Notes: generated by a model not told the origin, from the sequence alone. Counted from the first letter of the stretch, positions 1,921-34,477 are shown. The stretch: DNA of 64,000 nt from an uncultured Verrucomicrobiae bacterium (GCA_937770485.1 CALJHX010000003.1:60415-124414); one strand, 5' to 3'. Program-made: numbers and translations.

Positions 1921-2213
1921 AGCTACCTGATGGACCTGGTGCTGACGTGGAGCAGTGCAGCCGGGGGGCTGTCAATCTTGTGAATGAGAGGGCTGGAAGT
2001 GTCGTGACTCCTTTGCATGTGGTGGCTGTGTATGGAAGCAGGGAAACAGCCGAACTGTTAATCGCCAAGGGTGCGGATGTGAATGCGAAGATAGAGCCTG
2101 AGTCGAGCACCGCTAGATTTTGTCGAATCTAAAGAACTCAAAGAAATTGCCTGCCTCCTTATAGCAAACACGGCGGCAAGACGGGTGCCGAATTGAAAGC
2201 TGAAGGGGAATAG
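1921..2213 (+). pseudogene. Ankyrin-repeat cassette pseudogene (frameshifted, lacks the signal-peptide end)
   Basis: ..GADV.., VTPLHVVAVYGSRETAELLIAKGADVNAK, then TPLDFVESKELKEIACLLI, then KHGGKTGAELKAEGE* lie in three different frames with an internal stop. Confidence 0.7.
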
Positions 2214-2234
2214 CCCAAACTGTCTCTAGGGAAA

Positions 2235-2257
2235 CAGTTAAAACACCTTGAAAACTG
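2235..2257 (+). promoter_or_regulatory. Conserved 23-nt motif CAGTTAAAACACCTTGAAAACTG, 28 nt upstream of the 2286 start
   Basis: The same motif, with 1-2 differences, occurs at 5180-5202 and 6677-6700, each time oriented toward a downstream start codon. It contains TTGAAA. Function is not established. Confidence 0.35.
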
Positions 2258-2285
2258 CGACAATGGGGATAATTGTTACCTCGCT

Positions 2286-4445
2286 ATGAAAACACCACTT
2301 TCAAATGAGTGCTGTCGGTTGGTGGAGAAGTTTTGTCTTTCGGCTTTGTTCTTTTCTTTCCATTCATCGTTCGCCGAAGATTCAAAACCGGAGTCCTCGA
2401 AAAAAGCGGTGCCCATCATTAAAGACGGGGAAACACGAGTCTCGCCGAGGTTTAAAGACTCCGACATGTGGATCCGCCACGATTTATGGGTTGAAACTGA
2501 TTTTGATTCCGATGGAGACGGCAAGAAGGATCGAATGCACGTGGATGTGACGCGTCCGCGGCAAACTGAAACCGAAGGCTTGAAGGTACCGGTGGTCTAT
2601 AACTCAAGTCCGTATTTCGCTGGCACCGCCAAACCGGTTCATGGTTTCATGTGGGACCCTAGGCAAGAACTAGGTGTGGATCCACTGAAACGGAGGAAGG
2701 CTCCATCGGCTAAACGGAAGGGCGAGCGACCGATCATCTCAAAAGGACACGTCAAGGATTGGGTGCCTCGCGGCTTTGCCGTCGTTCACTCGTCTTCGCC
2801 GGGTACAGGACTGTCGCAAGGGTGTCCGACAGTCGGCGGCGATAATGAATCGCTTGCCCCCAAGGCAGTAATCGACTGGCTAAACGGACGGGCGGCGGGA
2901 TACACGACAGTGGACGGCGATCAACCTGTCACCTCATGTTGGTCAACTGGCAAGGTAGGAATGATCGGTACGTCATATAACGGCACTTTGTGCCTGGCTG
3001 CTGCAACAACCGGCGTCGATGGCTTGGAGGCAATCATCCCGGTCGCGCCAAATACATCCTATTACCATTACTACCGATCCAACGGCTTGGTGCGCTCGCC
3101 CGGCGGTTACATGGGGGAAGACATCGACGTGCTGTACGACTTTATCAATAGTGGAGATCCTAATAAACGCGAATACTGTAACTCTAATGTTCGCGATAAA
3201 GCCATGGCTAGTGGAATCGATCGAGTAACCGGTGACTACAACAAATTTTGGGCTGGTCGAGATTACCTTAACGACTTGGAACCAGTAAAAGCTGCAGTGT
3301 TAATGTCGCATGCTTTTAATGATTGGAATGTGATGCCCGAACATAGCAACCGAATCTATCAAGCGCTCAAAGAAAAAGGCGTCCCACTCCAAGTGTATTA
3401 CCATCAGGGTGGTCACGGGGGACTGCCTCCCTTCAAATTGATGAACCGCTGGTTTACACGATATCTGCACGGCATCGAAAACAACGTCGAAAAAGACGCT
3501 CGAGCTTGGATCGTCCGAGAAGGGGAAGACAGAAATAAACCGAAACCCTACGACGATTACCCGAATCCGGCGGCATCCCCTGTCACCTTTAAACTTATTG
3601 CTGGTGCACCAGAAATGGGCAAGCTGACAATTGCAACGAATTCAAATCAGGGTACCGAAACAGTAGTCGACAACTTTTCATTTAACGGCTCGGCGCTAGC
3701 CCAGGCTGATTGGACAGAGCATCGGCTAATGTATTTAACGGAAAAACTGACCGAAGCCGTACATCTGTCGGGAACACCCCGAATCACGATCAAGTTGGCC
3801 TGTAATAAAACGACCGCAAATCTGTCAATCTGGCTGGTTTCCCTGCCTTGGAACGCCAACAAGAACGCCAAGATTACTGAAAATATTATCACACGCGGCT
3901 GGGCCGATCCGCAAAACCATCGCTCGCTGACTGAAAGCGAGCCGCTAGTGCCGGGGCATTTTTACGACATGACATTCGACCTGCAACCTGATGACCAAGT
4001 GATACCTGTGGGCCAACAGATCGGGTTGATGATCATGTCCAGCGATCGTGAGTTCACATTGCGACCAGATCCTGGTACCGAATTAACAATTGACCTAGAT
4101 GAGACAAGCATTCAGTTGCCTCTAGTCGGGGGCGCCAAAGCGTTTGCAAAGGCTGTCACTAAGAAGACACAAAAAAAGAATAACAAATCCAAGAAGACTG
4201 CCTCCTCTACCGTAAGCAATAGTGTAAGTAGTAGTGTAAGTAGTAGTGTAATTTATGTGGTCAAGGATACAGATAGAGGGGAATTGCATTACAAGAATGC
4301 AAACGGAGAGGCAGTGCTTAAGGTGATAAGTTCAGATGGCAAGGTGGTTTTTGACGGGTTGATCAACACAAAGAAGCAAAAGTCCAAGGTGCCAAGAGAA
4401 GCGATGAAGTGGTACGAGGAAGTGCACAGAAAAATAAAGAAATAA
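2286..4445 (+). CDS. Xaa-Pro dipeptidyl-peptidase (S15 family, PepX/CocE-NonD type) with an unusual ~105-aa C-terminal extension
   Basis: Signal peptide; DSDGDGKKDRMHVDVTRP..LKVPVVY.SSPY; nucleophile box GMIGTSYNGT; C-terminal beta-sandwich region. The tail is a Lys/Ser-rich linker plus a small extra domain. Confidence 0.8.
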   Translation: MKTPLSNECCRLVEKFCLSALFFSFHSSFAEDSKPESSKKAVPIIKDGETRVSPRFKDSDMWIRHDLWVETDFDSDGDGKKDRMHVDVTRPRQTETEGLKVPVVYNSSPYFAGTAKPVHGFMWDPRQELGVDPLKRRKAPSAKRKGERPIISKGHVKDWVPRGFAVVHSSSPGTGLSQGCPTVGGDNESLAPKAVIDWLNGRAAGYTTVDGDQPVTSCWSTGKVGMIGTSYNGTLCLAAATTGVDGLEAIIPVAPNTSYYHYYRSNGLVRSPGGYMGEDIDVLYDFINSGDPNKREYCNSNVRDKAMASGIDRVTGDYNKFWAGRDYLNDLEPVKAAVLMSHAFNDWNVMPEHSNRIYQALKEKGVPLQVYYHQGGHGGLPPFKLMNRWFTRYLHGIENNVEKDARAWIVREGEDRNKPKPYDDYPNPAASPVTFKLIAGAPEMGKLTIATNSNQGTETVVDNFSFNGSALAQADWTEHRLMYLTEKLTEAVHLSGTPRITIKLACNKTTANLSIWLVSLPWNANKNAKITENIITRGWADPQNHRSLTESEPLVPGHFYDMTFDLQPDDQVIPVGQQIGLMIMSSDREFTLRPDPGTELTIDLDETSIQLPLVGGAKAFAKAVTKKTQKKNNKSKKTASSTVSNSVSSSVSSSVIYVVKDTDRGELHYKNANGEAVLKVISSDGKVVFDGLINTKKQKSKVPREAMKWYEEVHRKIKK
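4212..4251 (+). repeat. 12-bp in-frame tandem repeat (GTAAGYARTAGT x3.3) encoding VSNS-VSSS-VSSS
   Basis: Direct reading gives gtaagcaatagt gtaagtagtagt gtaagtagtagt gtaa, inside the C-terminal linker of the peptidase. Confidence 0.85.
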
Positions 4446-4511
4446 AAGCTGAAGGGAAATAAAACACCTTCTACTCACAACAATCCCAGCCGTGCTAATG
4501 GTTGGGTGTGG
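4445..4511 (+). repeat. Decayed cassette junction (..KAEGK stop/start region plus signal peptide) with ATG mutated to ATA
   Basis: AAAGCTGAAGGGAAATAAAACACCTTCTACTCACAACAATCCCAGCCGTGCTAATGGTTGGGTGTGG compares with the intact junction GAAAGCTGAAGGCAAATGAAACACCTCCT(A/G)CTCACAACAATCGCAGCCGTGGTGCTGGTGGGGTGTGG at 34460 and 35405. Confidence 0.75.
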
Positions 4512-4903: not shown

Positions 4904-4906
4904 TGA

Positions 4907-5151
4907 TCAATATACGTTTATCCTTTGGTTTGCCAGATGAGGCGCGGATGAATAATTTCCGACACGCTGCCGATTCAACGAAAACGGTAGGCAACCCGCC
5001 ATTACTCCGGTTGAGATTGTTGTGAGTAGAAGGTGTTTCATTTCCCTTTAGCTTCCAATTCTTGACCCGTCTTGCCGCCGTGTTCTCGGAGGAGATCGGC
5101 GGTTATGCCCAATAGCGATGTGACTGCGAGTGTCAGGAGTGAGCGTTTCAC
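4907..5151 (-). pseudogene. Two collapsed mini-cassettes (37 aa and 44 aa) joined by an ATGA overlap
   Basis: The minus strand reads GTG..VKRSLLTLAVTSLLGITADLLREHGGKTGQELEAKGK*. This overlaps (ATGA at 5041-5038) MKHLLLTTISTGVMAGCLPFSLNRQ..*. Signal-peptide and tail modules are present and no ankyrin repeats remain. Confidence 0.6.
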
Positions 5152-5179
5152 TGTAAGCCAACAGTCAACCTAATGAGTT

Positions 5180-5212: not shown

Positions 5213-5261
5213 GGCGGGTTGGTTGCTTCCACTCAGTTTTCCATTCTTCATTCGTCTAGCC
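5213..5261 (-). repeat. Degenerate cassette 3' end plus tail relic
   Basis: The minus strand GGCTAGACGAATGAAGAATGGAAAACTGAGTGGAAGCAACCAACCCGCC aligns with GGCAAGACGGGTGCAGAATTGAAAGCCGCTGGCAACTAAACCAACCCCC at 36040-36090. Confidence 0.5.
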
Positions 5262-5332
5262 ACCCCGGTTCGGGGCTTTGATCTTTCGTTTCCAGGAACA
5301 AGCCACTAGGCTATAGGCAAGAGCACAGCTTT

Positions 5333-6120: not shown

Positions 6121-6165
6121 GGCGTTCAAGTGGTGGAGAGGGTTGGTTTAGTTTCCTTTAACTCG
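6121..6165 (-). repeat. Cassette 3' relic with an internal deletion (..SLLR-VKGN*) plus tail
   Basis: The minus strand reads CTCTTGCGAGTTAAAGGAAACTAAACCAACCCTCTCCACCACTTGAACGCC. The tail matches 36078-36105 and 61-90. Confidence 0.55.
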
Positions 6166-7944: not shown

Positions 7945-7978
7945 CAACTAACCCGTCTTGCTGCCGTGTTTGAGTGGA
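7945..7978 (-). repeat. Cassette 3' relic (..LKHGSKTG*) 43 nt downstream of the S9 peptidase stop
   Basis: The minus strand reads CCACTCAAACACGGCAGCAAGACGGGTTAG. Confidence 0.5.
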
Positions 7979-8021
7979 AACACTGCAACCATGGAGTGAT
8001 CTAGAGTGTTCAGTGAACGTA

Positions 8022-10583
8022 TCATTCCCACCTAGGCTTCATCTTAAGGATGTGCTCTACAAAATAATCCATTTGTCTTCGACGACCGTAGGGGGTTCCT
8101 GCAGCGCCGTGCCCTGCACCCGGAATAAGAAGGTAGTCAAAGTCCTTATCCGCTTTAATTAAAGCATCAACGACCTGTGTCGTGCTTGCTGGATCGACAT
8201 TCCGATCAAGTTCACCCACTATCAATAATAACTTACCTTTTAGTTTGTGGGCGTGAGTGACATTGCTGTTTTGAGAGTATTCCGGGCCGACCGGCCAACC
8301 CATCCATGCCTCATTCCACCAGATTTTATCCATGCGATTGTCATGGCAGCCACAATCTGAAACACCGACCTTATAAAAGTTCCCATGATGCAGCAACCCA
8401 CTCATTGTGTTTTGACCTCCCGCTGAACCACCGTAAATACCAATATTGGACAAATCCATCTCGGGGTGTTTTTTGGCAGCAGCTTTTATCCATGGTATTC
8501 GATCCGGGAAACCGGCATCCTTAATGTTTTTCCAGCAAAAATCGTGAAATTCTTTCGAGCGCCAGTTGGTGCCCATTCCATCAATTTGGACCAGAATGAA
8601 TCCCAACTCAGCCATTCGTTGCTGACCGTAATAATCACGGAATTCTTTTGGTACATAGAAGCTATGTGGCCCAGCATAGATATTTTCTATCACTGGATAC
8701 CGCTTATCCCGGTCGAAATTAGTCGGACGCCAAATTACTCCAAAAATATCAGTTCCTCCATCTCGCCCCTTGGCCACAAAGCGTTCGGGCAACGTCCATC
8801 CGGTTTTATATAGTTTCACACAATCAGCTCGTTCCAATTCACAAATGAATTCCCCATCAGCTGAACGCAGTTCATTCACGGGAGGTTGATCCACTCGTGA
8901 CCATTTATCGATAAAGAACCGTCGGTCAGGAGACCACTGCAGTTCGTGTGTACCATTTCCCTCGGTTAAAACAGTGAAGCCTGTGCCGTCAAGATTAACA
9001 CGGCAGTGATGGATGTAATAGGGGTCCTGTTTCGGGTGAACCCCCATTCCCTGGAACCATATTTGTCGTCCGGATTCGTCAATATGTTCAACCTTTCTAA
9101 CGACCCAATTTCCATGTGTGAGAGCGTTCTTCAGTTTCTTTTTTCGCACGTCAAAAAGGTAGAGATGGTTCCATCCGTTACGTTCACTCATCCAAATCAA
9201 TTCTTCACCATCGCCAAGCCGGTATTCATAGTTTTTTTGCGAATAATCGATAAACGTGTCGCTTGTTTCTTCAACAACAGGCTTGGTTTTTCCATTTCGC
9301 GAGTTTACGGAAATTATTCTAAACACCTGATGTCCTCGCTCGTTATAATTAAAGGTAAACTCCCGTGAATCCTTTGCCCAGCGAATGCCATTGATTCGCC
9401 ACGGATTGTTAAATAATCCCTGTTCGATTTGAATTTCTTGCCTTTTGCCAACATTAAACAACTTGGGGCGTTGTTTTTCCACTCGATCACCCGGTTTCAG
9501 ATAGCTGAAGGAATGCAACTTGGGCTGCAATTGATCCTTTGGTGACGACTCAACAACATTAACAAGATGTTCCTCTTTCTTAAGCGTACGAAAAGCTGCC
9601 AACCGCTTCGAATCGGGTGACCAGTGAATGTCCCCTCTGCGATAAGAATCCTCAACAGTACCATCTTTACTGAGTTGATGATACTGACCGTTCTTGCCCT
9701 GAATCCAAAGGTTATGCTCTTTGAGCAGCACCTCCCACTTGCCATCAGGCGAACGCAAGCCTTGGGGTGGACTGTATTTCTCATGTTCAGGTCGCTTGAA
9801 GTCTTCATCTGACTCGTATGTACTCTTCTTAAATGCCGTAGTTTGGCCATCGATAATCACGGTGGGGTTTCCGGGTTTTGCCTCATAGATGCCAAGACGT
9901 TTTCCTTTTTCAGTTTCAATGAGCCAGACATGGTTTGCATATGTGTGTTGTTTGAATTCCGATTTATCGCCAATCACCTCGTAAAGATGCCGTCCGCCAT
10001 CGCCTGACACCCAAACCAAGCGAATGATCTGATCCGACACATTGCGGAATGTGACATAGGTTTCTGGCCCGCTACTGCCTGACGGACGAATGGACTCGGG
10101 GGGTTCCAGTAACAGAGGTTCATTAGAAGGTAACGTGAACTCACCCAACTCATTGTTTTTTAGGTCCAGTACCCATATATTATTTTTCCCAATCAGGTGT
10201 AGCTGATTCGGGTTATCGGTAAAAGCCAACTCATTGATTGGAAGTTTCTCAGCATCTACAGATTGGCCAAGAGTGTTAGTCAGAGTCTCAGCAACTTTGA
10301 CATGGTCGAATGCCAATTGACGTTCGCCCTTGCTGGCGTTAACCAAGACAAACTCACGTCGGTCGTTCGACAAATCGTTGCGATACCAGAAACGATCTCC
10401 GTCCGCGGACCACTTGGGATTGACATCCTTTTTGAAGACTTTATTTCGAACCTTATCTCGTAATCCCATTGCACGCTCATAATCCGCTTTGGACCCCTGC
10501 GCGAAAAGCTGTGTCATACAATTAAAGCTGACGACAAAAAGCGCGAAGCCAAGACGAATGATATTGTTTGAAAACACAGCCAA
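8022..10583 (-). CDS. S9B family dipeptidyl-peptidase IV-like serine peptidase
   Basis: 853 aa. The N-terminal part is a DPP-IV-type propeller region (repeated W.pDg.. motifs). The C-terminal part is an alpha/beta hydrolase with nucleophile box IYGGSAGGQ and downstream D and H. TTG or GTG start. Confidence 0.85.
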   Translation of the reverse strand: MAVFSNNIIRLGFALFVVSFNCMTQLFAQGSKADYERAMGLRDKVRNKVFKKDVNPKWSADGDRFWYRNDLSNDRREFVLVNASKGERQLAFDHVKVAETLTNTLGQSVDAEKLPINELAFTDNPNQLHLIGKNNIWVLDLKNNELGEFTLPSNEPLLLEPPESIRPSGSSGPETYVTFRNVSDQIIRLVWVSGDGGRHLYEVIGDKSEFKQHTYANHVWLIETEKGKRLGIYEAKPGNPTVIIDGQTTAFKKSTYESDEDFKRPEHEKYSPPQGLRSPDGKWEVLLKEHNLWIQGKNGQYHQLSKDGTVEDSYRRGDIHWSPDSKRLAAFRTLKKEEHLVNVVESSPKDQLQPKLHSFSYLKPGDRVEKQRPKLFNVGKRQEIQIEQGLFNNPWRINGIRWAKDSREFTFNYNERGHQVFRIISVNSRNGKTKPVVEETSDTFIDYSQKNYEYRLGDGEELIWMSERNGWNHLYLFDVRKKKLKNALTHGNWVVRKVEHIDESGRQIWFQGMGVHPKQDPYYIHHCRVNLDGTGFTVLTEGNGTHELQWSPDRRFFIDKWSRVDQPPVNELRSADGEFICELERADCVKLYKTGWTLPERFVAKGRDGGTDIFGVIWRPTNFDRDKRYPVIENIYAGPHSFYVPKEFRDYYGQQRMAELGFILVQIDGMGTNWRSKEFHDFCWKNIKDAGFPDRIPWIKAAAKKHPEMDLSNIGIYGGSAGGQNTMSGLLHHGNFYKVGVSDCGCHDNRMDKIWWNEAWMGWPVGPEYSQNSNVTHAHKLKGKLLLIVGELDRNVDPASTTQVVDALIKADKDFDYLLIPGAGHGAAGTPYGRRRQMDYFVEHILKMKPRWE

Positions 10584-10680: not shown

Positions 10681-10745
10681 GCTCCTTTGAGCTTTTAATT
10701 CTTCAATCGCTTTGCTGCCGTGTTTGCCGAGGAGGCTGACGGTTT
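10681..10745 (-). repeat. Cassette 3' relic (KTVSLLGKHGSKAIEELKAQRS..) directly after the CotH gene stop
   Basis: The minus strand reads ..CTCCTCGGCAAACACGGCAGCAAAGCGATTGAAGAATTAAAAGCTCAAAGG. Confidence 0.6.
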
Positions 10746-14306: not shown

Positions 14307-15151
14307 TTCTTTCGGTTCTGAGAGAACATCCACTCCATAAACCCATCAGTGAAGTAAGCGAAGTCATCAATAACGTGACCTTGTGATTTGTATTCGTGAT
14401 ATCTGACGTCGACGGCACCAGCTTCCTTTAGAGCCTTGAAGCTGATACGTGATCCTTTGACCCCTTTATCGCCATCACCGTTGAAGATCCAAATTGGGAT
14501 TTGCTTGATGGGATTTGCTTCTTCAGCATTTTGCGGGCCGTGGAAGTAGCCAGATAGAGGAGCAGCGGCTGCAAACTTGTTTGGGAATATCCTGATAAAA
14601 TTCCACGTGCCCTGGCCTCCTCTAGAAAAACCGGTCAAGTAGAGTCTATTCACGTCTACATTAGGGGTATTTGGGTTATCATTCAGTTCAGCAACCATGT
14701 CATCAAGGGCATTAATGGTCATCGTTCGATATTTGTCGCTAGACCAGTTGTCCTCTTTCTTCTGATTCCGTGGCACGAAAAGAATGTGAGGATGGGCTTT
14801 TTGAATCTTTGGCAGCGACCACACCCCCTTGGGGAAACCTTTGTGCGTATCGATCGTAAGGTCAGTATAGCCATGAAGAAAAGTCACCACCGGATACTTC
14901 ACACCGGCCTTGAGATGTTTCGGGACATAGAAGTGATAAGGCAGCCCGCTTTTGTGTTTCCGATCTTTGTAAAGTGAATTAAGGTTCTTTATTGATCCAA
15001 TCTTGTCTCTAACCGCCTTAAGTTTTTTGGTTTCTTCTATGTGGATAATTCTAGAAACACCGGTCTTAGCAATGGCTAGTTGCACTACAGTGAAACAGAG
15101 GATTAGCGTAAAATAAGTTTTATTTTGGGTGTATTGTTTCTTGAGATTCAT
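14303..15151 (-). CDS. Secreted alpha/beta-hydrolase (esterase or peptidase-like, GxSxG)
   Basis: 282 aa. YPVVTFLHG, the nucleophile elbow LTGFSRGGQG, and C-terminal ..H.. motifs are typical of carbohydrate-esterase or PHB-depolymerase-like hydrolases. Confidence 0.7.
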   Translation of the reverse strand: MNLKKQYTQNKTYFTLILCFTVVQLAIAKTGVSRIIHIEETKKLKAVRDKIGSIKNLNSLYKDRKHKSGLPYHFYVPKHLKAGVKYPVVTFLHGYTDLTIDTHKGFPKGVWSLPKIQKAHPHILFVPRNQKKEDNWSSDKYRTMTINALDDMVAELNDNPNTPNVDVNRLYLTGFSRGGQGTWNFIRIFPNKFAAAAPLSGYFHGPQNAEEANPIKQIPIWIFNGDGDKGVKGSRISFKALKEAGAVDVRYHEYKSQGHVIDDFAYFTDGFMEWMFSQNRKK

Positions 15152-25636: not shown

Positions 25637-26187
25637 CAGATCGAACTAACATTACAAGAAGATTGACTCATATCAGATTCCTAAACTAGCAATTTAATTT
25701 TTAAATTCAAACTTTATCAAGATTCAACAATTGTGATGATATTATGAATAATGTTAAAAAAGTTAGTTATGGAGAACTTATCTGCCGCATAAGAATCACA
25801 TTTGGCATTATTTTTTTTTGATTTTTCATTGTGCGCCAGTGGTTTTTGTCAGAGCTCGGGACTGATACATGCTAGGCCTAAAGTAAAATGCGAATTCGTT
25901 GTTGCCTCAGAAGACGTTAGCGATACTTTCACCGGTGACGAAGCGGCCAAGTAGTTTTCCATTTGGCGGCACCACTGTCCTGAAGTGCCTCTCGAGGGGA
26001 ACTGCAAGAGCCTCTGCTCTCCGCATCCGCATCTCTGAAACCCTCAAATGGCTTGCCTACCACTTCAAAAGAGAGGCAGGACTAATGGAGCCCTTCGCCC
26101 CCTCAAGCACCAGCTTAGCCTTGACTCCCGGCGCTGGCCTGCACCTGCACATCAAAAGGCCCCAGCCTACCGCCCCCGTCCCGCACC

Positions 26188-26284
26188 TTGACCCCGTGCT
26201 TCGCGCCCGACTAGTATAGGCCATGCACCGACCTTACCTGAAGCCCATCAATCTGGCCAAAACCGAGGCAGCTCGCAAAACGCT
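26188..26284 (+). promoter_or_regulatory. Sigma70-like promoter (TTGACC-N18-TAGTAT) plus leader, copy B
   Basis: -35 at 26188-26193 and -10 at 26212-26217. Aligns with the minus-strand copy at 15152-15260. Confidence 0.5.
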
Positions 26285-28222
26285 ATGAATCATCTACTAC
26301 TCAAAACAATCACAGCCTTTCTCATGGTGGAGATGAACATGTTTATTCCTGGCTCCGCCTGGGCCGTTGAGGATGGCTTGGTTTTCGATGCAAAGCTTGG
26401 ACACTACAAAGATCTTTCTTATGAAGCCTTGTCAGACAAGGGGTTACCTTGGAAGGAGCGCACACAGTTGTTTGGAGGTGAGACGCTTCATTACGGTGGT
26501 TTAACGGGGATGCAGCGCTTGGCCAAACGGAGGGAACTCGAAGTGCTACTGGCTACAATCAAGATGCGCGAAACGAGCAACTGGGCTGATCCGAAGTTGG
26601 CCGAGCGCGTTGAAACAGAAATTCACACTTGGCTTTATGCACAAATCCAAAATATGCCCGAGAAGTATGCTGAAACTAATGTTTACCCACTTAGAACCGG
26701 TGCGGTTGGATTCTTTCGCGCTTACGAAATTTTCGGAGATAAAAAATATCTCGAAGCTGGGTTGAATCGTACGGATGTAATTTTAAAAGCGCAGTGGCCG
26801 AAAGGGCATTGGCCGTGGGGGACAAGGCTTGGGGAAAACTTCGTGCGAATTCAGGATGGTTTCAACAACGAGCCGTTTTGGATCATGCTCTATGCCTACA
26901 AGTTGAGTGGTGATAAAAAGTATTTCGAATCTGCGAGGCGTTGCGCAGATGTGCTGCTTTCGTTGCAGCGCAGAAATGGCGGTTGGCCGGATCAATGGTC
27001 TTTTAACGGTAGTTCATCAGGGCATTCTGGCGTTATGCGAGGTGTGTCATTTAATGACAACGCCACGAATTCCTGCGTGCAAATGATGGTCGCCATGTAT
27101 CATATGACAGCCGACAAGAAGTATATTGCCAGATTATCTGAGCTGGGCAGATTTGTTGCCAAATCTAAAATAGGTGAAGGAATACTTGTTGGCTGGTGTG
27201 AGCAATACAATGACGACGGGAGACCGGTACGGGCTCGTCAATACGAGATCGAATTGCCTTATCCACGTGCTTTGACGCGTGGTGTTGGGCCATTGTTAGT
27301 CTGGCTTTATCTGATGGACAACAATGAGGCGCATATGGATTTGTTGAGGAGAGCCTACGCTTGGCATGAACATGTTCGCCAAGAGGAGATTAAACCGCAG
27401 GTTCTTTCACATTGGAGGGCGATGAGCCGAATGTGGTCGCCTTCACATCATTCGATGACACAAAATTATTTGATGGAATATCGGCCGGGCTGGCCGGATG
27501 CTTATTTGCCGGATGGTTCCAATTGGGGACGAGTGCTGAGCTTTCGTTTGATGCCGTGGAACCGAGTCACGCCGGAGCAAACGACAAAATACGACAGCTT
27601 TATCGACCATGGTTGGCCCCCAGTGGAGGAGTTGGCCAGAATGGCAAGTGCAAATCAGGCTCCGCCGCGCGGGTACAATATGTACGTTCATTGTCATTCA
27701 TCGATCGGTAATTCGTTGAGCGAAATCCGTCGAGCACTGCTTGAACACAAACGCGGAGGACGCGAAGGGATGCTCAAGTATTATTCAAACCCAACCAAGT
27801 ACACAGCGGATCAGTATTTGCAGGCGCGTGTCGATTCAGCTAAGCGTGCGCTCGATTTGAGGAATCGCCGTATGGCTTATCCATTTTCTAATTCTCCAGG
27901 CTATACGGGAATGGCTGCAATGAAAGATTTTAGCTTTCTCGGATCCAAAAGCCGTTGGTATGGCAAGACCGGCACAAAATGGGGTGCTGCATTTCAAAAT
28001 GTTTACCCGTCTCCCAGTGTAACTTGGTATCAATGGCAATTTATTTACGACATGAAGTTGGCGCATGGAGAAATTGATTCAGAAGCGGCCGCACGAGGTG
28101 GGCGTGGCTTTGAAACGGTCGCCAGCCAAACTCATTTGGATTCTTGGGACGTACTTGGTGAATGGGGTATGGGAGTTCTGGAAAGGGAGAACCATTTCGA
28201 CGTTCCGTTGGATAAGGACTAG
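26285..28222 (+). CDS. PL10-like pectate lyase (PelA/Pel-15E-type alpha/alpha barrel) with a cassette-derived N-terminus
   Basis: 645 aa. LQRRNGGWPDQW, VSFNDNATNS, GWCEQYNDDGRPVRARQYE resemble Pel-15E/PL10 boxes. The first 33 nt match the ankyrin-cassette start at 29/33. Confidence 0.55.
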   Translation: MNHLLLKTITAFLMVEMNMFIPGSAWAVEDGLVFDAKLGHYKDLSYEALSDKGLPWKERTQLFGGETLHYGGLTGMQRLAKRRELEVLLATIKMRETSNWADPKLAERVETEIHTWLYAQIQNMPEKYAETNVYPLRTGAVGFFRAYEIFGDKKYLEAGLNRTDVILKAQWPKGHWPWGTRLGENFVRIQDGFNNEPFWIMLYAYKLSGDKKYFESARRCADVLLSLQRRNGGWPDQWSFNGSSSGHSGVMRGVSFNDNATNSCVQMMVAMYHMTADKKYIARLSELGRFVAKSKIGEGILVGWCEQYNDDGRPVRARQYEIELPYPRALTRGVGPLLVWLYLMDNNEAHMDLLRRAYAWHEHVRQEEIKPQVLSHWRAMSRMWSPSHHSMTQNYLMEYRPGWPDAYLPDGSNWGRVLSFRLMPWNRVTPEQTTKYDSFIDHGWPPVEELARMASANQAPPRGYNMYVHCHSSIGNSLSEIRRALLEHKRGGREGMLKYYSNPTKYTADQYLQARVDSAKRALDLRNRRMAYPFSNSPGYTGMAAMKDFSFLGSKSRWYGKTGTKWGAAFQNVYPSPSVTWYQWQFIYDMKLAHGEIDSEAAARGGRGFETVASQTHLDSWDVLGEWGMGVLERENHFDVPLDKD

Positions 28223-28395
28223 TCAATTGTCACAAGGAAGTCGTTGAACTGTTGATTGCCAATGGTGCGGATGTGAGTCCGAAGGATATGAAAGATCAAA
28301 CACCACTAGATATGACCAAGCATCCCGAAACCGCTGGCCTCTTCCGTAAGCACGGCGGCAAGACTGAGAAGGAGCGGGAAGCTGAAGAAAGATGA
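28216..28395 (+). pseudogene. 3' fragment of an ankyrin cassette with no start
   Basis: The open frame reads [59 protein letters not shown]. It overlaps the stop of the previous gene, and its TGA overlaps the next ATG (ATGA at 28392-28395). Confidence 0.75.
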
Positions 28396-28886
28396 AATAT
28401 CTCCTAACTGTAACAATCACAGCTGTACTGTTGGCGGGGTGTGAGCCATTGCAGTCAAATGCAAAGTCATTACATCTTGCTGCCGAAGAAGGGGATATCG
28501 AAGCAGTAAAGGAGCATTTAGCCGCTGGAACGGATAAGAATGTGAGGGCGGGTAAGTGGGGAGACACTCCATTGCACCGTGCAGCTTTTTGGGGTTACAC
28601 AGAGATCGTCGAATTATTGATAAATAATGAAGTAGATGTGAACGCCAAGGATGACTATGGATGCACACCTTTACATGATGCGGCGGAATACTCTCACTTG
28701 GAAATCACTGAAATGCTGATTGGTAGGGGTCCGGACATGAATGCACTGGATAACAACGGTGATACACCCCTGGACTTGGCCAGCGGTAAAATAGCCGACC
28801 TCCTACGCAAACACGGAAGTAAGACAGGTGAAGAATTGAAAGCTGAAGGGAAATTAAAACGAAACAAAGCCGAGGATTTACGCTAA
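28392..28886 (+). CDS. Ankyrin-repeat lipoprotein (cassette family), extended by stop-codon loss
   Basis: [17 protein letters not shown] lipobox, about 3 ANK repeats (TPLH.AA..G..E.V.LL...G.DVNA), then [20 protein letters not shown] followed by 10 extra codons. Confidence 0.85.
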
Positions 28887-29596
28887 TTGAACTGCTGGTA
28901 GTCATCGCCATTATCGCAATCCTTGCGGGCTTGCTGTTGCCCGCATTGGCTAAGGCAAAATTTAAGGCCAAGGTGACCAACTGCACTTCAAACTACCGGC
29001 AGTGGGGAATATCTGCCAACATGTACGCCATGGATTTCGAAGACAAACTGCCTTCGTTCAAAATGCCGCGCACCGGCCTTAACCCATGGGATGTTTCCAT
29101 CGATATGGCCCCCGGCATTGAGCCGTATGGATTAACTGTGCCGATGTGGTTCTGCCCGACCCGCCCCAACGAATTCACTGATGCAGACCAGTGGGCGCGA
29201 AAAAACCTCAAGCGAGCCATCAGTTCCATCGAGGACCTAAACCGCTACTATCGGCGTAGCTATGGCAGTTTTGCCATCATCAAGCACAACTGGTGGGTGC
29301 CTCGGAACGCCGGAGGTTTCATGTTTCCTACACCAAAAATGAACGGCGACGCAAAAGACCCCAACGGATGGCCGGTCTCCCTGTCGGATTCCCGTGCAGC
29401 AGACCGTCCAATCATTTCCGATTTAACTGCTATGAAGGTGGGGGGCAAGCCAACCCCGGCCAAGGCAGGTGGCGGCCATCAATATCAAGGAAGCCTTCAC
29501 TCTGTGAACGTGGCTTTTGGCGACGGCCATAACGAGACGCGGCCCATTGCCAAAATTAAACTAAGGCACACCGGCAACTGGCATGCGTTTTATTGA
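28853..29596 (+). CDS. Prepilin-type N-terminal cleavage/methylation domain protein (pseudopilin-like, DUF1559-like), with ATG replaced by ATT
   Basis: (I)[35 protein letters not shown].. compares with paralog [23 protein letters not shown] at 51939. It has the C-terminal ..NVAFGDGH.. box. The longest ATG/TTG ORF begins only at 28931, inside the pilin helix. Confidence 0.6.
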
Positions 29597-29605
29597 CGGC
29601 ATTAC

Positions 29606-29653
29606 AAACACGGCGGCAAGAGCAAGTATAACCTGGAAGCCGCTGGGAACTAA
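29606..29653 (+). repeat. Cassette 3' relic (KHGGKSKYNLEAAGN*), 10 nt after the pseudopilin stop
   Basis: AAACACGGCGGCAAGAGC..GAAGCCGCTGGGAACTAAACCAC. Confidence 0.6.
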
Positions 29654-29815
29654 ACCACTTTCATGGCGGCACTCGGACTGCAAGGGTTCGCCGTTCACAG
29701 GCATATGAAAGTATCATTGGCAACAATCAGGAAGTTAGTCAGCGACAGGACTGACTTCCTAGAGAAAATCAAAGGCGTTGCTGTGCTGGCCAGCTTCTTG
29801 ATTTGTTGAAAACTG

Positions 29816-30295
29816 TTGCACGAGGATATACTCGCACTGTTTTTTCTGGTATGGGTTTTTATGTTCCTTGCCGTTATGATTAGCGATTTCATCAAATTGA
29901 TTTCCACCTTTGATTCCGACAGTCTTAGGGATCTTCCTGAAATTTACAGTCCAACGATTGAATTCGAAGACCCAATCAACACAGTCCAAGGGTTAGACAA
30001 CTTGTATTTGATGTTTGAAGATCTTCTTAAGGTGTTTTCTGAAATTGAGATTCAAGTCAAAGAAACCTCATCAACGGATCATACGGCCTTCGTTCGTTGG
30101 CTTATGACATATCGGTTTAGAAAAAAGAAATACTCTATCGATGGGGTAACTCATCTGAAATTCGATTCCTCGGGATTAATTTGTAAGCACAAAGATTATT
30201 GGGATGCATCTTTTCCTCTATACGGGACGTTTCCGTTGCTTGGTTCTTTAATGCGAGGCATAAAAAAAATAGCTGCTGTGAAAATCCCCCGATAG
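29816..30295 (+). CDS. NTF2/SnoaL-like fold protein
   Basis: ..IYSPTIEFEDPINTVQGLDNL..FVRWLMTYRF..GVTHLKFDSSGLICKHKDYWD resembles the NTF2-family pattern (..F.DP..G..W......G.s.l.fd..G.I..H.DYwD). The real start may be the internal M (MISDF..). AT-rich. Confidence 0.45.
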   Translation: MHEDILALFFLVWVFMFLAVMISDFIKLISTFDSDSLRDLPEIYSPTIEFEDPINTVQGLDNLYLMFEDLLKVFSEIEIQVKETSSTDHTAFVRWLMTYRFRKKKYSIDGVTHLKFDSSGLICKHKDYWDASFPLYGTFPLLGSLMRGIKKIAAVKIPR

Positions 30296-30324: not shown

Positions 30325-30387
30325 CAAATTGACGGACTCCTCCGCAAACACGGCGCCAAGACGAGTGAAGAATTGAAAGCTGAATAA
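30325..30387 (+). repeat. Cassette 3' relic (QIDGLLRKHGAKTSEELKAE*)
   Basis: CTCCTCCGCAAACACGGCGCCAAGACGAGTGAAGAATTGAAAGCTGAATAA, 30 nt after the previous stop. Confidence 0.65.
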
Positions 30388-30537
30388 AGGGTAGAGCCTT
30401 AAAGATAAATATTTGAGATACATGGGGACATGGTACTTTTAATAGATAAAACTTGTATTTTATTTTACAGAAAAAGTGTTTACACAACCCTTCGCTCAAG
30501 TGATTGTTCTTTACTATTAATTAACTCCAACAGGAAT

Positions 30538-33500
30538 ATGAAAAGAAAAACCATTCAATCATTTTTCAAATATTTGTACATGAGCGCACTTGTCGCGCTG
30601 GTGGCTGTCGTGACGCCGGTGACAGCCCAGACGTTGCTTGAGGAGGACTTTTCCTCCGGTTTTGAGGAGTGGACCGTGGTGCATCCCCCGGGTGCCTTCA
30701 ACGGTTCCACCCGGTGGCAGGTTGGTGCTTCGGGAGAGACGCTTTTTGAAAACAGCAATGTCCGGGCGCCCGGCTCGGCAGGAATGTTGATCAATGAAGC
30801 CAAGACCGGTGAAAACTACACCTACAAGGCGCTCCTGATGAGCGGGGATGACGACGGCATCGGGCTGGTGTTTGGCTACAAGGATGCATCCAACTTTTAC
30901 CGGATCATGTTTGCCTCCCAAGAGGAGCGTAACACGTTTCCCGGTGAGGGTTGGCTGCTGGAGCGGGTTGTGGATGGTAGTGCCATTCATCTGGGTGGGG
31001 ACGATTACAGTGAAGATTGGGAACCTGATTTCATCTATATACAAGGGTATCCGTTTGAAGTGACGATCAAAACCAAAGGAAAGAAATTGACCATTACCGT
31101 GGTAGATGATCCCGAGGAAGACGGGACCGAGTACGAACTGGTCAGCAACCTTACAATCCCCGCGGACGCGGACGGCAACGTGGGGCTTGCGAGTTGGGAA
31201 CAGGCAGGCGGAATTCCCTCCGGGTCTCACTTTAGTGATATTTCGGTGGACGGGAAGGAAGTCGCGATACCCAATCCGCTTGAGGGATGGGAGGAAGTGA
31301 TCCCCCTAAACTATGAGGAAAATGATTTCCTGGAGGGTGGGAACGAAGGCATACCCCTGTGGAGTGTTGGAATCACTACCGATTCTGTAGCTGGGGGGAT
31401 CCTGACCGAGTCGAGCAACAGTGGGTTGGCCGGCATCGAGATTGAGGGAGTGGATGAAGAATTCTACAGCAATCTCGACTGGGTGAGCGGTATGCTTGTC
31501 AAGGGTGATGCGAAGTGGAAGGACTACCGCATTTCCACAAAGCTGCATCCCTATCCCCACTGCGCCTTCACAGGATGCTGGGTCAATGGGCATGGGGTAG
31601 TTTTCCGGTACAAGGATCCGGAGAATTTTTATCGGCTCTCCTTTTCGAGTCGGAATCCTGGCGACGGCTTGCCGCGCCAGGGTGTTTCGATCCAAAAGGT
31701 GGTTAACGGGGAATGGAGCGAGGTGTTTTGGGAGAAGGGGGCGGCGTTTTCCTCCAAGAAATTTGTCCCTAGCGGCAAGGCGGACCAAAGCGAATTTAAC
31801 CTGAACATGTCGATTGTTGGCAATCAGCTGGAGTTTAGCATCGTGAACGACCCGGACGGGATGGCTAAGGTGTTTAACTATGGCCCGATCGAAATCACCG
31901 GGGTTGATTCAGGCAAGGTAGGTTTTTTCAGCTGGTACCAGCACAAGCTGGACATCCATCATATCAAGGTGGAGGAGATTGCCGGAATGCCCTTTGAGGT
32001 GTTCAGCAATTTTGGAAAACCGAGTCCACCGGCCGGTTTGACCAACTTCGAGCCGGGGACAAAGGTGCTTGCGACAGTTCCCAGTCCTATTGTGGATCCT
32101 CCGGGATTTCGCCGTAAGGTGACCGGTTGGAGCGGGACTGGCTCTGCTCCCAAGGGGGGCATCTGGTTTTTGCCGGGAAACCCGAGGCTGTCATTCGTCA
32201 TCAACCAGGCCTCCTCGTTGACTTGGAATTGGAAGACTGAGGTCAAGGTCAACATTACTGCGGATGGAGGAGGGAAGGTAACCGGTGGAAGTTCCAAGTG
32301 GTACAAGGAGGGATCCAAGTTGATCGTCACTGCGGTACCCAGTACTGGCAATATGTTTGATGGCTGGTACGGAGCTGTCGCAAGTAAAGAGCGCAAGCTG
32401 ACTGTGTATACCGACCGTCCGCTGGATTTGATTGCTGCTTTCCGTCCGGACTCGGATCGGGACAAGATGGACGATGATTGGGAGAAGAAATATATTGGCA
32501 ACCTTAACGAACAAGGGAGTGGCGACTTTGACGGGGACGGGGTGAGCAACATGGACGAGTACCGTCGTCGCACCAACCCGGCGGCGGAGGAGGAGCTGGT
32601 GTACGAGGTGCCCTCCAACTGGAAGAATCCAAATGTATCCAATCCCTATACGGTCGGGCGTATGGTCGTGGCGGACTTCGGCAAGGGCTACAGTGGTATC
32701 TGGGAGAACAGCGGAACTGGAATCGCTGCTAGCAGCGACGAATTTGAATTTATTGATTGGCGCGGGCCAAAGGTCGTTCTGAAGGACTCGGTCTGGGAGG
32801 AGGACTGGAAGGATGGCGTTTACGAAGCGACCTTTGTGGTCGGAGATTCCGACACGAGCTGTATTTATTTTCGCTATCAGGATGAGGACAACTGGTACCG
32901 GGCCTCGATTTCAGGGAGAGAAGGAGACGGAATTCAAAAGACTGACAAATGGGGCTCCTATACTGTCAATGGTGTGACTGCGGCGCAGATTGGCTTAACC
33001 ATCCAGAAGAAGGTAAATGGGGTGTATCAGTTAATTGAGGAATACGACGATTATATGATTCCTGATCCGGAGGATGACACGCTGAAGATCATCAAGTTGA
33101 AGGTCTCCGCGAATGGGAATTCCTTCAAGGTGCAGGCTATTCCCTACGACCCGATTAATCTGAAAGACTTTGATGATGATGAAGCCTCCGAGGAAGTGTC
33201 GTTCAATGATGAAGCTCTGGCAACCGGCTGTGTGGGAGTTGGCTTTGCTTATCAGGGTAATGGTTTTAACTGGTGTCGATCATGTCCTGGGGGACCGGCG
33301 GACACGGCGACAGAAAATATCCCAGTTGGTTCTGGTGTTTTGTTAAATGATTTATCCATCCAAGTGAACGAAAAAATCGTCTTTCGTGACTCATGGACCT
33401 TCCACGACACTCCAACAGGTCTGCCCGTTGGTTGGTTCAATCCTTTTGCGAGCCAAGAAGGCTCCATGGCAGGAGAATGGGTGCCTAGCGCTCACGGTGG

Positions 33501-34311
33501 ATTTATCCAGATGTCCCCATTTTTCCTGCCAAGCCTCACGAAAAAAGACATCGCTAAGGCAGACGGCGAGGGTCCTGTACTACTAGCTCCGCTGGTAAAA
33601 GAGCAGGATTTTGTCCTTGAGCTAGGCTTGCTGTCACACAACGCCAATAATTTGCTAACAACAGTCGACGGTCTCGGTTTTGTCTATGATTACATCGATG
33701 AAAACAATTTTGCCCGTGTGCTTTTCGTGAATCCAAAGGCGCTCAACCTCGAAGGCGGGTCAACAATACCTCGGGGCATTAACATAAGTCGCAAGATCCA
33801 GGGACAGTGGCGTGATATCATTGTTGGTGATCTATCCTTCACCTATCAGCGAGGAAGACCTTTCGATGTTGCATTTACGGCTGAAAAAGGGAATTATCAT
33901 TTAGTGATAAAAGAACACGACCCAATGTTCGTTTGGAATAGTTGGGAAAGGGTTTACGTTCCGGCTACACCGAACGAGATCAAAAAAGGTCCAAAGTCCG
34001 CAGAATTGCACTGGAGTGACAAAGAAATCACCAGTGGAACTCGATATGGGCTAACTACCTGGGGTTCAAGATATGCCCATTTTCTTCATGCTAGAGCTTA
34101 CTCACTTGATGGCAAGAATTCACAGCCGTCCAAACCACCCGTTCTTGCCGTTTCACGCAACGGTAACAAAGTGAGCATTACATGGGAGGGCGAAGGCACT
34201 TTGGAAAGTGCGGAGCAGATCGGAGGTCCGTGGTCTGAGGTTCGTGGCGTTTCCAGTCCAACCACTGTTCAACCTGTTGCCAAGCAAGGTTACTACCGTT
34301 TGAAGAGATGA
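30538..34311 (+). CDS. Large secreted protein with four ConA/LamG-like beta-sandwich modules, an InlB-B-type repeat, a TSP3-like Ca-binding linker and a shared C-terminal module
   Basis: I prefer the start MKRKTIQSFF.. with a signal peptide. The signature recurs four times: GIGLVFGYKDASNFYRIMF, HGVVFRYKDPENFYRLSF, SCIYFRYQDEDNWYRASI, LGFVYDYIDENNFARVLF. Also present: GGGKVTGG..GSKLIVTAVPSTGNMFDGWYG and DSDRDKMDDDWE..GDFDGDGVSNMDEY. Confidence 0.7.
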   Translation: MKRKTIQSFFKYLYMSALVALVAVVTPVTAQTLLEEDFSSGFEEWTVVHPPGAFNGSTRWQVGASGETLFENSNVRAPGSAGMLINEAKTGENYTYKALLMSGDDDGIGLVFGYKDASNFYRIMFASQEERNTFPGEGWLLERVVDGSAIHLGGDDYSEDWEPDFIYIQGYPFEVTIKTKGKKLTITVVDDPEEDGTEYELVSNLTIPADADGNVGLASWEQAGGIPSGSHFSDISVDGKEVAIPNPLEGWEEVIPLNYEENDFLEGGNEGIPLWSVGITTDSVAGGILTESSNSGLAGIEIEGVDEEFYSNLDWVSGMLVKGDAKWKDYRISTKLHPYPHCAFTGCWVNGHGVVFRYKDPENFYRLSFSSRNPGDGLPRQGVSIQKVVNGEWSEVFWEKGAAFSSKKFVPSGKADQSEFNLNMSIVGNQLEFSIVNDPDGMAKVFNYGPIEITGVDSGKVGFFSWYQHKLDIHHIKVEEIAGMPFEVFSNFGKPSPPAGLTNFEPGTKVLATVPSPIVDPPGFRRKVTGWSGTGSAPKGGIWFLPGNPRLSFVINQASSLTWNWKTEVKVNITADGGGKVTGGSSKWYKEGSKLIVTAVPSTGNMFDGWYGAVASKERKLTVYTDRPLDLIAAFRPDSDRDKMDDDWEKKYIGNLNEQGSGDFDGDGVSNMDEYRRRTNPAAEEELVYEVPSNWKNPNVSNPYTVGRMVVADFGKGYSGIWENSGTGIAASSDEFEFIDWRGPKVVLKDSVWEEDWKDGVYEATFVVGDSDTSCIYFRYQDEDNWYRASISGREGDGIQKTDKWGSYTVNGVTAAQIGLTIQKKVNGVYQLIEEYDDYMIPDPEDDTLKIIKLKVSANGNSFKVQAIPYDPINLKDFDDDEASEEVSFNDEALATGCVGVGFAYQGNGFNWCRSCPGGPADTATENIPVGSGVLLNDLSIQVNEKIVFRDSWTFHDTPTGLPVGWFNPFASQEGSMAGEWVPSAHGGFIQMSPFFLPSLTKKDIAKADGEGPVLLAPLVKEQDFVLELGLLSHNANNLLTTVDGLGFVYDYIDENNFARVLFVNPKALNLEGGSTIPRGINISRKIQGQWRDIIVGDLSFTYQRGRPFDVAFTAEKGNYHLVIKEHDPMFVWNSWERVYVPATPNEIKKGPKSAELHWSDKEITSGTRYGLTTWGSRYAHFLHARAYSLDGKNSQPSKPPVLAVSRNGNKVSITWEGEGTLESAEQIGGPWSEVRGVSSPTTVQPVAKQGYYRLKR

Positions 34312-34477
34312 TCGAAATGGGCCACTGTTAGTCAAGCATGGGAATTGGGATGGGCCTCTTTGCACAGGCGGTTTATTCAGTTTACAACACCATAAGTGGA
34401 GACGAAATAAATCCGCCGAGCTTTTCCGCAAACAAGGTGGTAAGACGGGTGAAGAATTGAAAGCTGAAGGCAAATGA
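34304..34477 (+). pseudogene. Start-less ankyrin cassette relic overlapping the stop of the large gene and the start of the next ankyrin gene
   Basis: The frame reads ..[41 protein letters not shown]. Its TGA overlaps the ATG at 34474. Confidence 0.65.

Follow-up and report, generated by a model that had tools for sequence, protein, structure and literature searches.

Introduction

Integron arrays, especially chromosomal super-integrons, carry cassette repeats of 120-130 nucleotides (nt), such as the VCR of Vibrio, an attC hairpin with RYYYAAC/GTTRRRY cores, and the recombinase IntI with its attI site. Surface-protein families with conserved ends include the lipoproteins of Borrelia, which share an upstream region and a leader, the pilS and opa genes of Neisseria, msp2 of Anaplasma, and outer-membrane protein genes of Helicobacter. 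Short interspersed repeats at gene ends or inside genes (REP/BIME, the Correia element of Neisseria, the Rickettsia palindromic elements) are palindromic or have terminal inverted repeats and insert as units. We analyzed a 64,000-nt stretch of DNA from an uncultured Verrucomicrobiae bacterium (GCA_937770485.1 CALJHX010000003.1:60415-124414; hereafter the window), in which pieces of a repeated junction unit, J, lie behind genes of unrelated function. Our best explanation, with a probability of roughly 0.6, is that a cassette-type family of ankyrin lipoproteins undergoes recombination and deletion at its conserved ends, leaving tail stubs behind whichever gene is currently upstream.

The locus is like integrons in that co-oriented, mostly promoterless genes of unrelated function are each followed by a repeat of about 120 nt, with a promoter (here a promoter-like module) at the head of the array and contents that differ between close relatives. 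Unlike integron repeats, J codes for protein to either side of a stop/start overlap, lacks an imperfect palindrome and R''/R' cores, and folds no better than shuffled sequence; no IntI or attI was seen in the window or the commonest J-adjacent families, and breakpoints are scattered. As in the surface-protein families, conserved 5' (signal peptide) and 3' ends, the probable recombination homology, surround variable interiors, leaders are attached to unrelated mature proteins, the ends are more conserved than the interiors at synonymous sites, and breakpoints lie in the conserved ends. In contrast to those families, both conserved ends here form one continuous block over the gene boundary, the cargo includes wholly unrelated enzymes, no silent donor copies feed one expression site, neighboring copies show no excess similarity, and the hosts are free-living marine Verrucomicrobia. 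Of the systems compared here, integron arrays are closest in layout and multigene surface-protein families closest in exchange via conserved ends. Short interspersed repeats resemble J in their high copy number, length of about 100-150 nt, position at gene boundaries and occasional translation, but J is non-palindromic and constitutes a gene family's native end.

Polyimmunity loci of polymorphic toxin systems hold ankyrin-repeat (Imm-ank) and NTF2-fold immunity proteins (PMC3482391). Tandem small ankyrin and NTF2-like genes, high turnover and occurrence in Verrucomicrobia are common to those loci and this one (PMC3482391), and a TIR-domain gene was found in a related array. Unlike in polyimmunity loci, the ankyrin proteins here have lipoprotein signal peptides and most of the cargo consists of hydrolases, sulfatases and pseudopilins; a conserved junction repeat has no described counterpart there, and no toxin domain was noticed in Pfam scans of the window, although no search aimed at toxin/immunity profiles was made. 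No description of J was found in the searchable literature.

Results

Alignment of copies from the window and its relatives delimited J as a single sharp-edged block, about 118 nt of DNA with nearly the same sequence in every copy (consensus GAAACCGCCGACCTCCTCCGCAAACACGGCGGCAAGACGGGTGAAGAATTGAAAGCTGAAGGGAAATGAAACACCTCCTACTCACAACAATCGCAGCCGTGCTGCTGGTGGGGTGTGG). Mean pairwise identity was 0.7-0.95 within J compared to about 0.3 in the flanks on either side. The block is continuous across a gene boundary, joining the 3' end of one small ankyrin lipoprotein gene to the start of the next, and contains the last ~22 codons of the first gene, a ribosome-binding site, an ATGA stop/start overlap and 18 codons of lipoprotein signal peptide. 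The native cassette is a small ankyrin-repeat lipoprotein gene joined to its neighbors by the 4-nt ATGA overlap. Three intact genes of this kind were present in the window, at 28392-28886 (Ank164), 34474-35421 (Ank315) and 35418-36077 (Ank219), and all three proteins begin with MKHLLLTTIAAVVLVGCG, the 164-aa copy with a variant start, and finish in the J tail. Ank164 matched Pfam Ank (E 8e-27) and Ank_2 (E 2e-24) in our scan. For Ank219, Ank Pfam domains were precomputed for its 120 best database homologues, and the protein itself matched NCBIfam models of ankyrin effectors, with scores far under the cut-offs. More than 7000 database proteins matched Ank219, and both the signal peptide and the tail motif were present in 79 of the best 120; an exact-protein look-up of Ank219 returned no record. 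A lipobox (MKHLLLTTIAAVVLVGC-G), read directly from the sequences with the pattern [LVI][ASTVI][GAS]C, was found in Ank315, Ank219 and most of the 120 best homologues, and by this signal peptide the ankyrin cassettes are predicted bacterial lipoproteins. Two tail haplotypes, one of them TKKELEAAGK, pair with the same signal-peptide half. At 34408-36116 of the window, adjacent tails alternate between two discrete DNA haplotypes, ..ACGGGTGAAGAATTGAAAGCTGAAGG.. and ..ACCAAGAAGGAACTGGAAGCCGCAGG...

Related DNA, about 450 kb of marine Verrucomicrobia, was collected by a metagenome scan with a 17-nt tail pattern, together with the true matches from a genome-collection scan; the pattern used for the latter (CAAACACGGNNNNAAGAC) was too unspecific, giving 119 loci that were mostly chance matches and about 13 that were real. 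A junction profile built from 27 full copies (nhmmer; model positions 1-126, with the ATG of ATGA at 70-72) identified 283 J matches in 90 loci, individual loci being designated by L and a number below. Named sources were SCGC AAA164-E04, Pedosphaera-labelled metagenome-assembled genomes (MAGs), and ETNP, Arabian Sea and Saanich Inlet MAGs; contigs bearing J were labelled Mediterranean, Arabian Sea, Saanich Inlet, ETNP and Fram Strait. The same interleaving was seen in Fram Strait long-read contigs, with genes including DUF1501, Amidohydro_2, N_methyl pseudopilin, SnoaL/DUF4440, TIR and Laminin_G_3. Genes adjacent to J in the relatives represented 72 Pfam families in 71 proteins, with N_methyl (8) and sulfatase (4) most frequent. 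The signal-peptide half of J was found fused to unrelated proteins, and partial tails fused in frame to unrelated proteins at varied points were common (..DAELKAEGK, for example).

The same slots held different genes in different relatives. An esterase (window 14303-15151, minus strand) was 88-92% identical in L137 and L125, with the same ATGA end, and was followed by an ankyrin gene in each of these loci (ANK288 in L137, ANK108 in L125) and by a CotH gene in the window. The window CotH gene had a degenerate signal-peptide half in front and a tail stub 15 nt behind. Because two relatives share the ankyrin state and the CotH ends are worn, the parsimonious direction would be that CotH replaced an ankyrin interior at this slot. 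Such a difference between orthologous loci is what the original prediction of relics in this window, made from its sequence alone, had proposed to look for. Large J-flanked proteins in L135 and L210 were considered as a second CotH cassette and rejected; they are unrelated to the window CotH apart from the shared leader. Likewise, in L017 the tail of an intact ankyrin gene, together with its downstream flank (78% identical), matched window positions 29605-29777; the window equivalent of that ankyrin gene is a pseudopilin gene and a stub, with similarity beginning at CAAACACGG, 8 nt past the pseudopilin stop. The L072 orthologue of a window S15 peptidase (83% identical) ends ..NSKELKSEGK* in the tail frame and is followed by ATGA and an intact signal-peptide half; the window S15 gene has the same tail fusion, with 5 nt inserted and ATA in place of ATG.

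Cassettes had also switched context. The interior of Ank164 was about 95% identical to L062, the pseudopilin segment was 91% identical to L240 8612-9357, and one cassette was 95% identical between L174 and L240, in each case with different neighbors on both sides. L124 and L128 shared a gene, a 193-nt spacer and a tail stub at 99.5% identity and were unrelated right after ..GAAGGGAA; past this switch, L128 had a pseudopilin gene from ATGA and L124 a Cys-rich small open reading frame (ORF). The few mismatches between them were clustered inside the tail. A PL10-like gene (95% identical) is followed by the esterase gene in the same orientation in L137, whereas the two genes are 11 kb apart and on opposite strands in the window; the PL10-like similarity ends 46 nt past the stop, inside an ankyrin remnant. 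These recombination breakpoints (L017, the CotH slot, the context switches, L124/L128) fell within the conserved ends. Over all copies, breakpoints were scattered, with matches starting over model positions 3-70 and ORF stops from -48 to +93 nt of the projected J start, and a fixed crossover point was not supported. We infer that homologous recombination is the agent of these exchanges and that the promoter-like module described below, U, drives transcription of the arrays. Another pair, L241 and L242, was 99.3% identical over the first 16.7 kb, of which the initial 10.9 kb contained some ten differences; a one-base change at 8926 breaks a 150-aa ankyrin gene (8951-9403) into fragments, a strain-level pseudogenisation. 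This pair was set aside as uninformative about recombination, the point mutation alone breaking the gene.

The original prediction also stated that relics lie directly behind at least eight unrelated ORFs, always in the orientation of the ORF. A tail counted as a stub when its own frame was open for fewer than 60 codons upstream (n = 59), and 53 of the 59 had an upstream ORF of at least 100 aa. The stub shared the strand of the upstream ORF in 49/53 compared to a baseline of 0.70 for adjacent ORFs of the same loci (p = 7e-5), and the co-oriented stubs had a median gap of 38 nt, with a gap of 60 nt or less in 32/49. The bias in orientation and distance was therefore recovered across relatives. 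Co-orientation is, however, the usual state of bacterial genes that lie close together. Read-through or frameshift into the tail was rejected as an explanation, with 8, 18 and 9 stubs at frame offsets 0, +1 and +2 from the upstream ORF; a single junction type seen repeatedly, ..FYRVRVVE*, accounts for the excess at +1. Endings of the form ..FYRV[KR]V[VI]E* or ..YYRLKR* are shared by many large secreted proteins (window 34270-34311; L121, L128, L206, L208, L213, L258), and in the relatives the tail follows these proteins directly from model position 13, which resembles one propagated fusion type.

Seventeen J copies or stubs were found in the window with the junction profile, and the core 17-mer AAACACGGCGGCAAGAC occurred 14 times (3 mismatches or fewer) compared to 0.13 expected by chance, confirming the predicted 3' relics behind unrelated ORFs. 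By translation, the stubs in the window had lost their starts and carried stops. The profile copies, followed by two matches to the terminal tail variant TAAACCAACYCNCTCCACCACTTGAACGC (93-97% identical to 36072-36103), were as follows.

1921-2285, plus strand: ankyrin-repeat remnant and tail (tail 2143-2211, model 5-71, E 4e-13), then a 75-nt spacer, B2, ending at the S15 ATG
4435-4511, plus strand: junction stub, tail end and signal-peptide half with ATG changed to ATA (model 46-122, E 1.5e-19)
4991-5107, minus strand: full junction stub (model 4-120, E 1e-32), no co-oriented ORF ahead; inverted partner of 4435-4511
5228-5267, minus strand: weak match (model 29-68, E 0.027)
7949-7986, minus strand: short tail stub, 36 nt past the S9 stop (model 11-48, E 0.004; 17-mer with 1 mismatch)
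10685-10745, minus strand: tail stub, 15 nt past the CotH stop (model 6-66, E 2e-8)
14259-14313, minus strand: junction remnant joining esterase to CotH, with ribosome-binding site, ATGA and degenerate signal-peptide half (model 55-117, E 5e-11)
26285-26331, plus strand: signal-peptide half of J at the start of the PL10-like gene (model 70-116, E 4e-7)
28325-28445, plus strand: full J behind the PL10-like gene (model 3-123, E 6e-27); whole feature with ankyrin-repeat remnant 28216-28445
28788-28857, plus strand: J tail (model 5-74, E 1e-15)
29605-29662, plus strand: tail stub, 8 nt past the pseudopilin stop (model 25-82, E 2e-5)
30326-30384, plus strand: tail stub, 30 nt past the NTF2-like stop (model 6-64, E 7e-14)
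34408-34528, plus strand: full J behind the LamG-type gene, heading Ank315 (model 4-124, E 8e-39); ankyrin remnant and J together 34304-34528
34670-34727, plus strand: tail copy inside Ank315 (E 1.4e-8)
34967-35003, plus strand: tail copy inside Ank315 (E 2.5e-5)
35352-35472, plus strand: J between Ank315 and Ank219 (model 4-124, E 7e-35)
36008-36116, plus strand: J copy, terminal tail (model 4-111, E 7e-18)
41-118, plus strand: terminal-variant tail stub at the window edge, sequence match to 36072-36103
6121-6165, minus strand: terminal-variant tail stub, 96.9% identical over 32 nt to 36072-36103

Seven of the eight gene and relic pairs in the original prediction were co-oriented, with gaps of 36 nt (S9), 15 nt (CotH), 0 nt (PL10-like), 8 nt (pseudopilin), 30 nt (NTF2-like) and 0-96 nt (LamG-type), and with the S15 stop inside its stub. 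The eighth relic (6121-6165) is a real tail of the terminal variant but lies 200 nt behind an 81-aa ORF without a family match, not directly behind a convincing gene. Additional relics had been placed at 1921-2213, where the tail lies at 2143-2211, and at 41-118, which is a terminal variant; a further one at 5213-5261 corresponded only to the weak minus-strand match. The strong stub at 4991-5107 and the signal-peptide halves heading the CotH gene (14259-14313) and the PL10-like gene (26285-26331) had been missed. The claim that one unit organizes about 36 kb was overstated: the stubs fall into two or three arrays, and the profile found no copies in 14.4-26.2 kb or 36.2-64 kb of the window. The stubs at 4435-4511 and 4991-5107 form a facing inverted repeat 480 nt apart, possibly an inversion end-point between plus- and minus-strand blocks. 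Ank315, with its two internal tails, resembles three cassettes fused in frame after loss of stop and signal-peptide parts.

Genes and other features of the arrays are listed here.

2286-4445, plus strand: S15 peptidase gene; TAA stop (4443-4445) inside the stub, gene end fused into the tail
8022-10583, minus strand: S9 peptidase (DPP IV) gene, by ORF and Pfam scan
10761-14306, minus strand: CotH gene, in the slot taken by ankyrin cassettes in L125 and L137
14303-15151, minus strand: esterase gene, first of the minus-strand array, ending ..NRKK with ATGA overlap
15152-15340, minus strand: promoter-like module U, second copy, at the head of the minus-strand array (TTGACC-18-TACAAT at 15250-15221)
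26085-26284, plus strand: promoter-like module U, TTGACC-18-TAGTAT at 26188-26217, with leader up to the PL10-like ATG, heading the plus-strand array
26285-28222, plus strand: PL10-like (Pec_lyase) gene by Pfam; the signal-peptide half of J makes up its first ~47 nt (MNHLLLKTITAFLMV)
28392-28886, plus strand: intact ankyrin cassette, 164 aa (Pfam Ank), TGA stop changed to TTA
28853-29596, plus strand: pseudopilin gene at the junction ATG position (ATT here), prepilin N-methylation domain at residues 7-28
29816-30295, plus strand: NTF2/SnoaL-like gene (Pfam)
30430-34311, plus strand: large secreted protein, labelled LamG-type in the original prediction, ending ..YYRLKR
34474-36077, plus strand: ankyrin lipoprotein genes Ank315 and Ank219 (315 and 219 aa), ATGA overlap at 35418-35421
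36008-36155, plus strand: terminal tail variant, with stop, AACCAACCCCCTCCACCACTTGAACGC, and a terminator-like hairpin and T-run at 36131-36155

The window contains co-oriented, mostly promoterless genes in two or three arrays, of which at least two are headed by U and one ends in a terminator-like hairpin. U is a module of about 130 nt with TTGACC, 18 nt, TACAAT or TAGTAT, and a conserved leader of about 65 nt. It stands before the first gene of different arrays, twice in the window and also at L137 1341-1545 and L210 5595-5851; the copy at 26085-26284 was 77% identical to L137 1341-1531 and also aligned with the region upstream of the esterase and with L210. U and the terminal hairpin would fit two operon-like arrays, at 26.1-36.2 kb (plus strand) and 15.3-7.9 kb (minus strand). 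The junction at 28853-28856 reads ATTA instead of ATGA, by which Ank164 loses its stop (10 extra codons) and the pseudopilin its ATG. The full prepilin N-methylation domain of the pseudopilin requires a start at 28853, and an ATT start, a fresh pseudogene or a sequencing error is possible. Outside the arrays bearing J, a 1397-aa secreted protein (42096-46289) is built from six almost identical units of about 219 aa (657 nt). In a J-bounded slot of a relative, L241 5246-7516, a protein with TIR_2 and a Tricorn/PD40 beta-propeller hints at a conflict or defence context.

Discussion

In the explanation that we prefer, the cassettes would be promoterless and translationally coupled, and their conserved ends would act as portable recombination homology, because cassettes with different interiors have similar ends. 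Deletions or illegitimate joins that have an end point within or beside J would also happen, and such events may swap, delete or fuse cassette contents. When an unrelated gene enters a slot, a piece of the old cassette tail would stay behind it as the relic. A piece of the old signal peptide may sometimes survive in front, as for the CotH and PL10-like genes, and a few tail codons may be fused in frame to the C-terminus, as for S15 in L072. The orientation and distance of the stubs would be regular because the cassettes rely on upstream transcription and translational coupling and because intergenic DNA is short in these genomes. Replacement of cassette interiors was one of two readings in the original prediction, and it gains from the slot swap, L017, the context changes and the strain switch; the genes adjacent to J, of 72 Pfam families, do not point to its other element, a single ancestral ankyrin array. 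Ankyrin cassettes that spread into operons and were later deleted fit many of the cases equally well.

Several results weigh against the exchange of cassettes through conserved ends. The direction of change, ankyrin cassettes into operons or foreign genes into ankyrin arrays, is resolved for the CotH slot only. No clean polymorphism of J-cassette-J versus single J was found in the small set of loci sharing two or more segments. The promoter and terminator calls are consensus matches, and their overall counts were not above shuffled expectation. J copies were no more alike within a locus than between loci (tail, 0.826 compared to 0.856; signal peptide, 0.829 compared to 0.822), a comparison that tests arrays (short loci) and not whole genomes; local concerted evolution was not supported by this result, and simple local gene conversion fails to explain the uniformity of J because identity within loci is not above that between loci. 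Lastly, stubs were 92.2% and intact tails 94.4% identical to the consensus (p = 0.02), which indicates stubs that are either young, still converted, or constrained.

The uniformity of J extends to synonymous sites. At pairs of codons for the same amino acid, the same codon was used at 0.865 in the signal peptide and 0.835 in the tail, compared to 0.582 in cassette interiors and 0.31-0.40 expected from codon usage, and third codon positions in J had a mean pairwise identity of 0.75-0.80 compared to 0.30 in the flanks. It is possible that these sites are conserved by selection acting directly on the sequence or by exchange via a common pool, and the conservation leaves room for a sequence-specific function of J. 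A new integron-like gene-capture system of abundant marine Verrucomicrobia, with a coding junction (protein tail, ATGA, signal peptide) in place of a hairpin attC and served by a recombinase or by phage-assisted homologous exchange, could explain it and is in our estimate rather unlikely. That J is an active, sequence-specific site of cassette exchange (a dedicated integron-like system on a coding junction) or a selfish junction element, with J-flanked cassettes actively excised and inserted, we regard as quite unlikely. Co-oriented unrelated cargo behind a common promoter-like module speaks for such an integron-like reading, as do the length of J, which is close to that of the Vibrio cassette repeats, synonymous conservation across genomes in spite of no local homogenisation, and a strain-level switch exactly at ATGA (L124/L128). 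Numerous tail-only copies stop at ATGA(AA), and numerous copies of the signal-peptide half alone begin at 67-70, but ends clustering at the ATG are also expected from selection for intact genes, and many breakpoints fall at other J positions (29-66 and, in frame, within the tail). The J consensus has no inverted repeat or stable fold and no GTT, hence no GTTRRRY core, and its identity with attC was rejected for want of a palindrome, hairpin or core sites. No recombinase, integrase or transposase was found among the genes of the 64-kb window (main ORFs, Pfam scans), and no IntI/attI-type recombinase among these main ORFs or the 25 commonest families of the 71 J-adjacent proteins. The layout is integron-like with no integron parts found, and J is not filed as an integron because the attC test failed.

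The J tail also occurs on a phage-like contig, a further point for an integron-like reading, and phage carriage of the tail is a possible route for exchange. This contig, L282 (IMG/VR UViG_3300030329_002155), has a DnaB-like helicase, an exonuclease and a large terminase (PHROGs). Its ankyrin gene (11442-11969, minus strand) has no signal peptide, and the last ~58 nt of the gene match the J tail in DNA (..CTCCTCCGCAAACACGGCGGCAAGACGAGTGAAGAATTGAAAGCTGAAGGTAACTAAACC); L197 has the same tail ending.

Alternatively, the tail could be an RNA-level element (processing, stabilizing, terminating or coupling) kept behind genes because it is functional there, which we consider very unlikely. The last ~15 nt of the tail (GCTGAAGGGAAATGA) contain a Shine-Dalgarno-like AAGGG and a coupled start, and together with ATGA they resemble a ribosome-binding site and a point of coupling for the gene that follows, because in 20 of 105 tail-only copies an unrelated ORF starts within 9 nt of the ATG of ATGA, mostly exactly there; these ORFs include several pseudopilins and 570- and 585-aa enzymes. 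Stubs that remain about 92% identical to the consensus and the kept synonymous sites are also in favor of this alternative. However, several window stubs have no ATG and the next genes are 40-210 nt away, stubs are cut at varied positions, two tail haplotypes pair with the same signal-peptide half, and terminator-like sites miss the stubs except at the array end. Rfam 15 gave no match at E of 1 or less in window positions 1-37000. The J consensus folded no better than shuffles as single-stranded RNA or DNA (z = -0.6 and -0.7; DNA fold -16.5 kcal/mol, z = -0.7), and the consensus fold of the alignment (-2.3 kcal/mol) had essentially no covariation and no alignment-supported hairpin. J as an RNA element was rejected on folds, covariation and Rfam. 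The functional element of the original prediction is thereby reduced to the tail end as an apparent coupling point and the synonymous conservation; the RNA structure and family were not found, nor was a single breakpoint position. Tails that are not coupled had two conserved continuations, the terminal variant (TAAACCAACCC.CTCCACCACTTGAACGC..) and the 75-nt spacer B2, which ends at the next ATG; the S15 gene begins exactly at its closing ATG (2286). B2 (window 2209-2285, ..CCAACCCACCTCTGCGGCAACAGTTAAAACGCCTTGAAAACTGCGCTCATCGGGATGACAG..ATGAAA) was also found in L125, L234, L149, L222, L210, L166 and L104, and it leads to MKSQLIAIVAAV.. lipoproteins in relatives and to the S15 peptidase start in the window.

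Plain pseudogene debris of a decaying ankyrin paralogue family, made regular by operons and compact intergenic DNA with no role of J in recombination, is likewise very unlikely: it is in keeping with the usual co-orientation of close neighbors (the window alone has 8/8, p ~0.06 against the 0.70 baseline), with stubs that lack starts and have stops, and with the point mutation in L241/L242, but not with different genes in the same slot among relatives, the same cassettes between different neighbors, near-identical strains that switch content exactly at J, or the signal-peptide half fused to unrelated proteins, and random decay would leave interior or 5' fragments as often as 3' ones and J ends no more alike than interiors.

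If exchange through the conserved ends of ankyrin cassettes is true, C-terminal ..ELKAEGK tails and MKHLLLTTIAAV.. leaders on unrelated proteins should be read by annotators as recombination products, and it would explain why short-read assemblies break here, many J-bearing contigs being 0.7-2 kb. It also raises the question of why a 118-nt coding junction stays constant at synonymous sites across genomes. Cosmopolitan marine Verrucomicrobia would carry a recombination-based gene-shuffling layout that has an integron-like outcome without integron parts, and that would place hydrolases, sulfatases, peptidases, pseudopilins and ankyrin lipoproteins into common expression slots.

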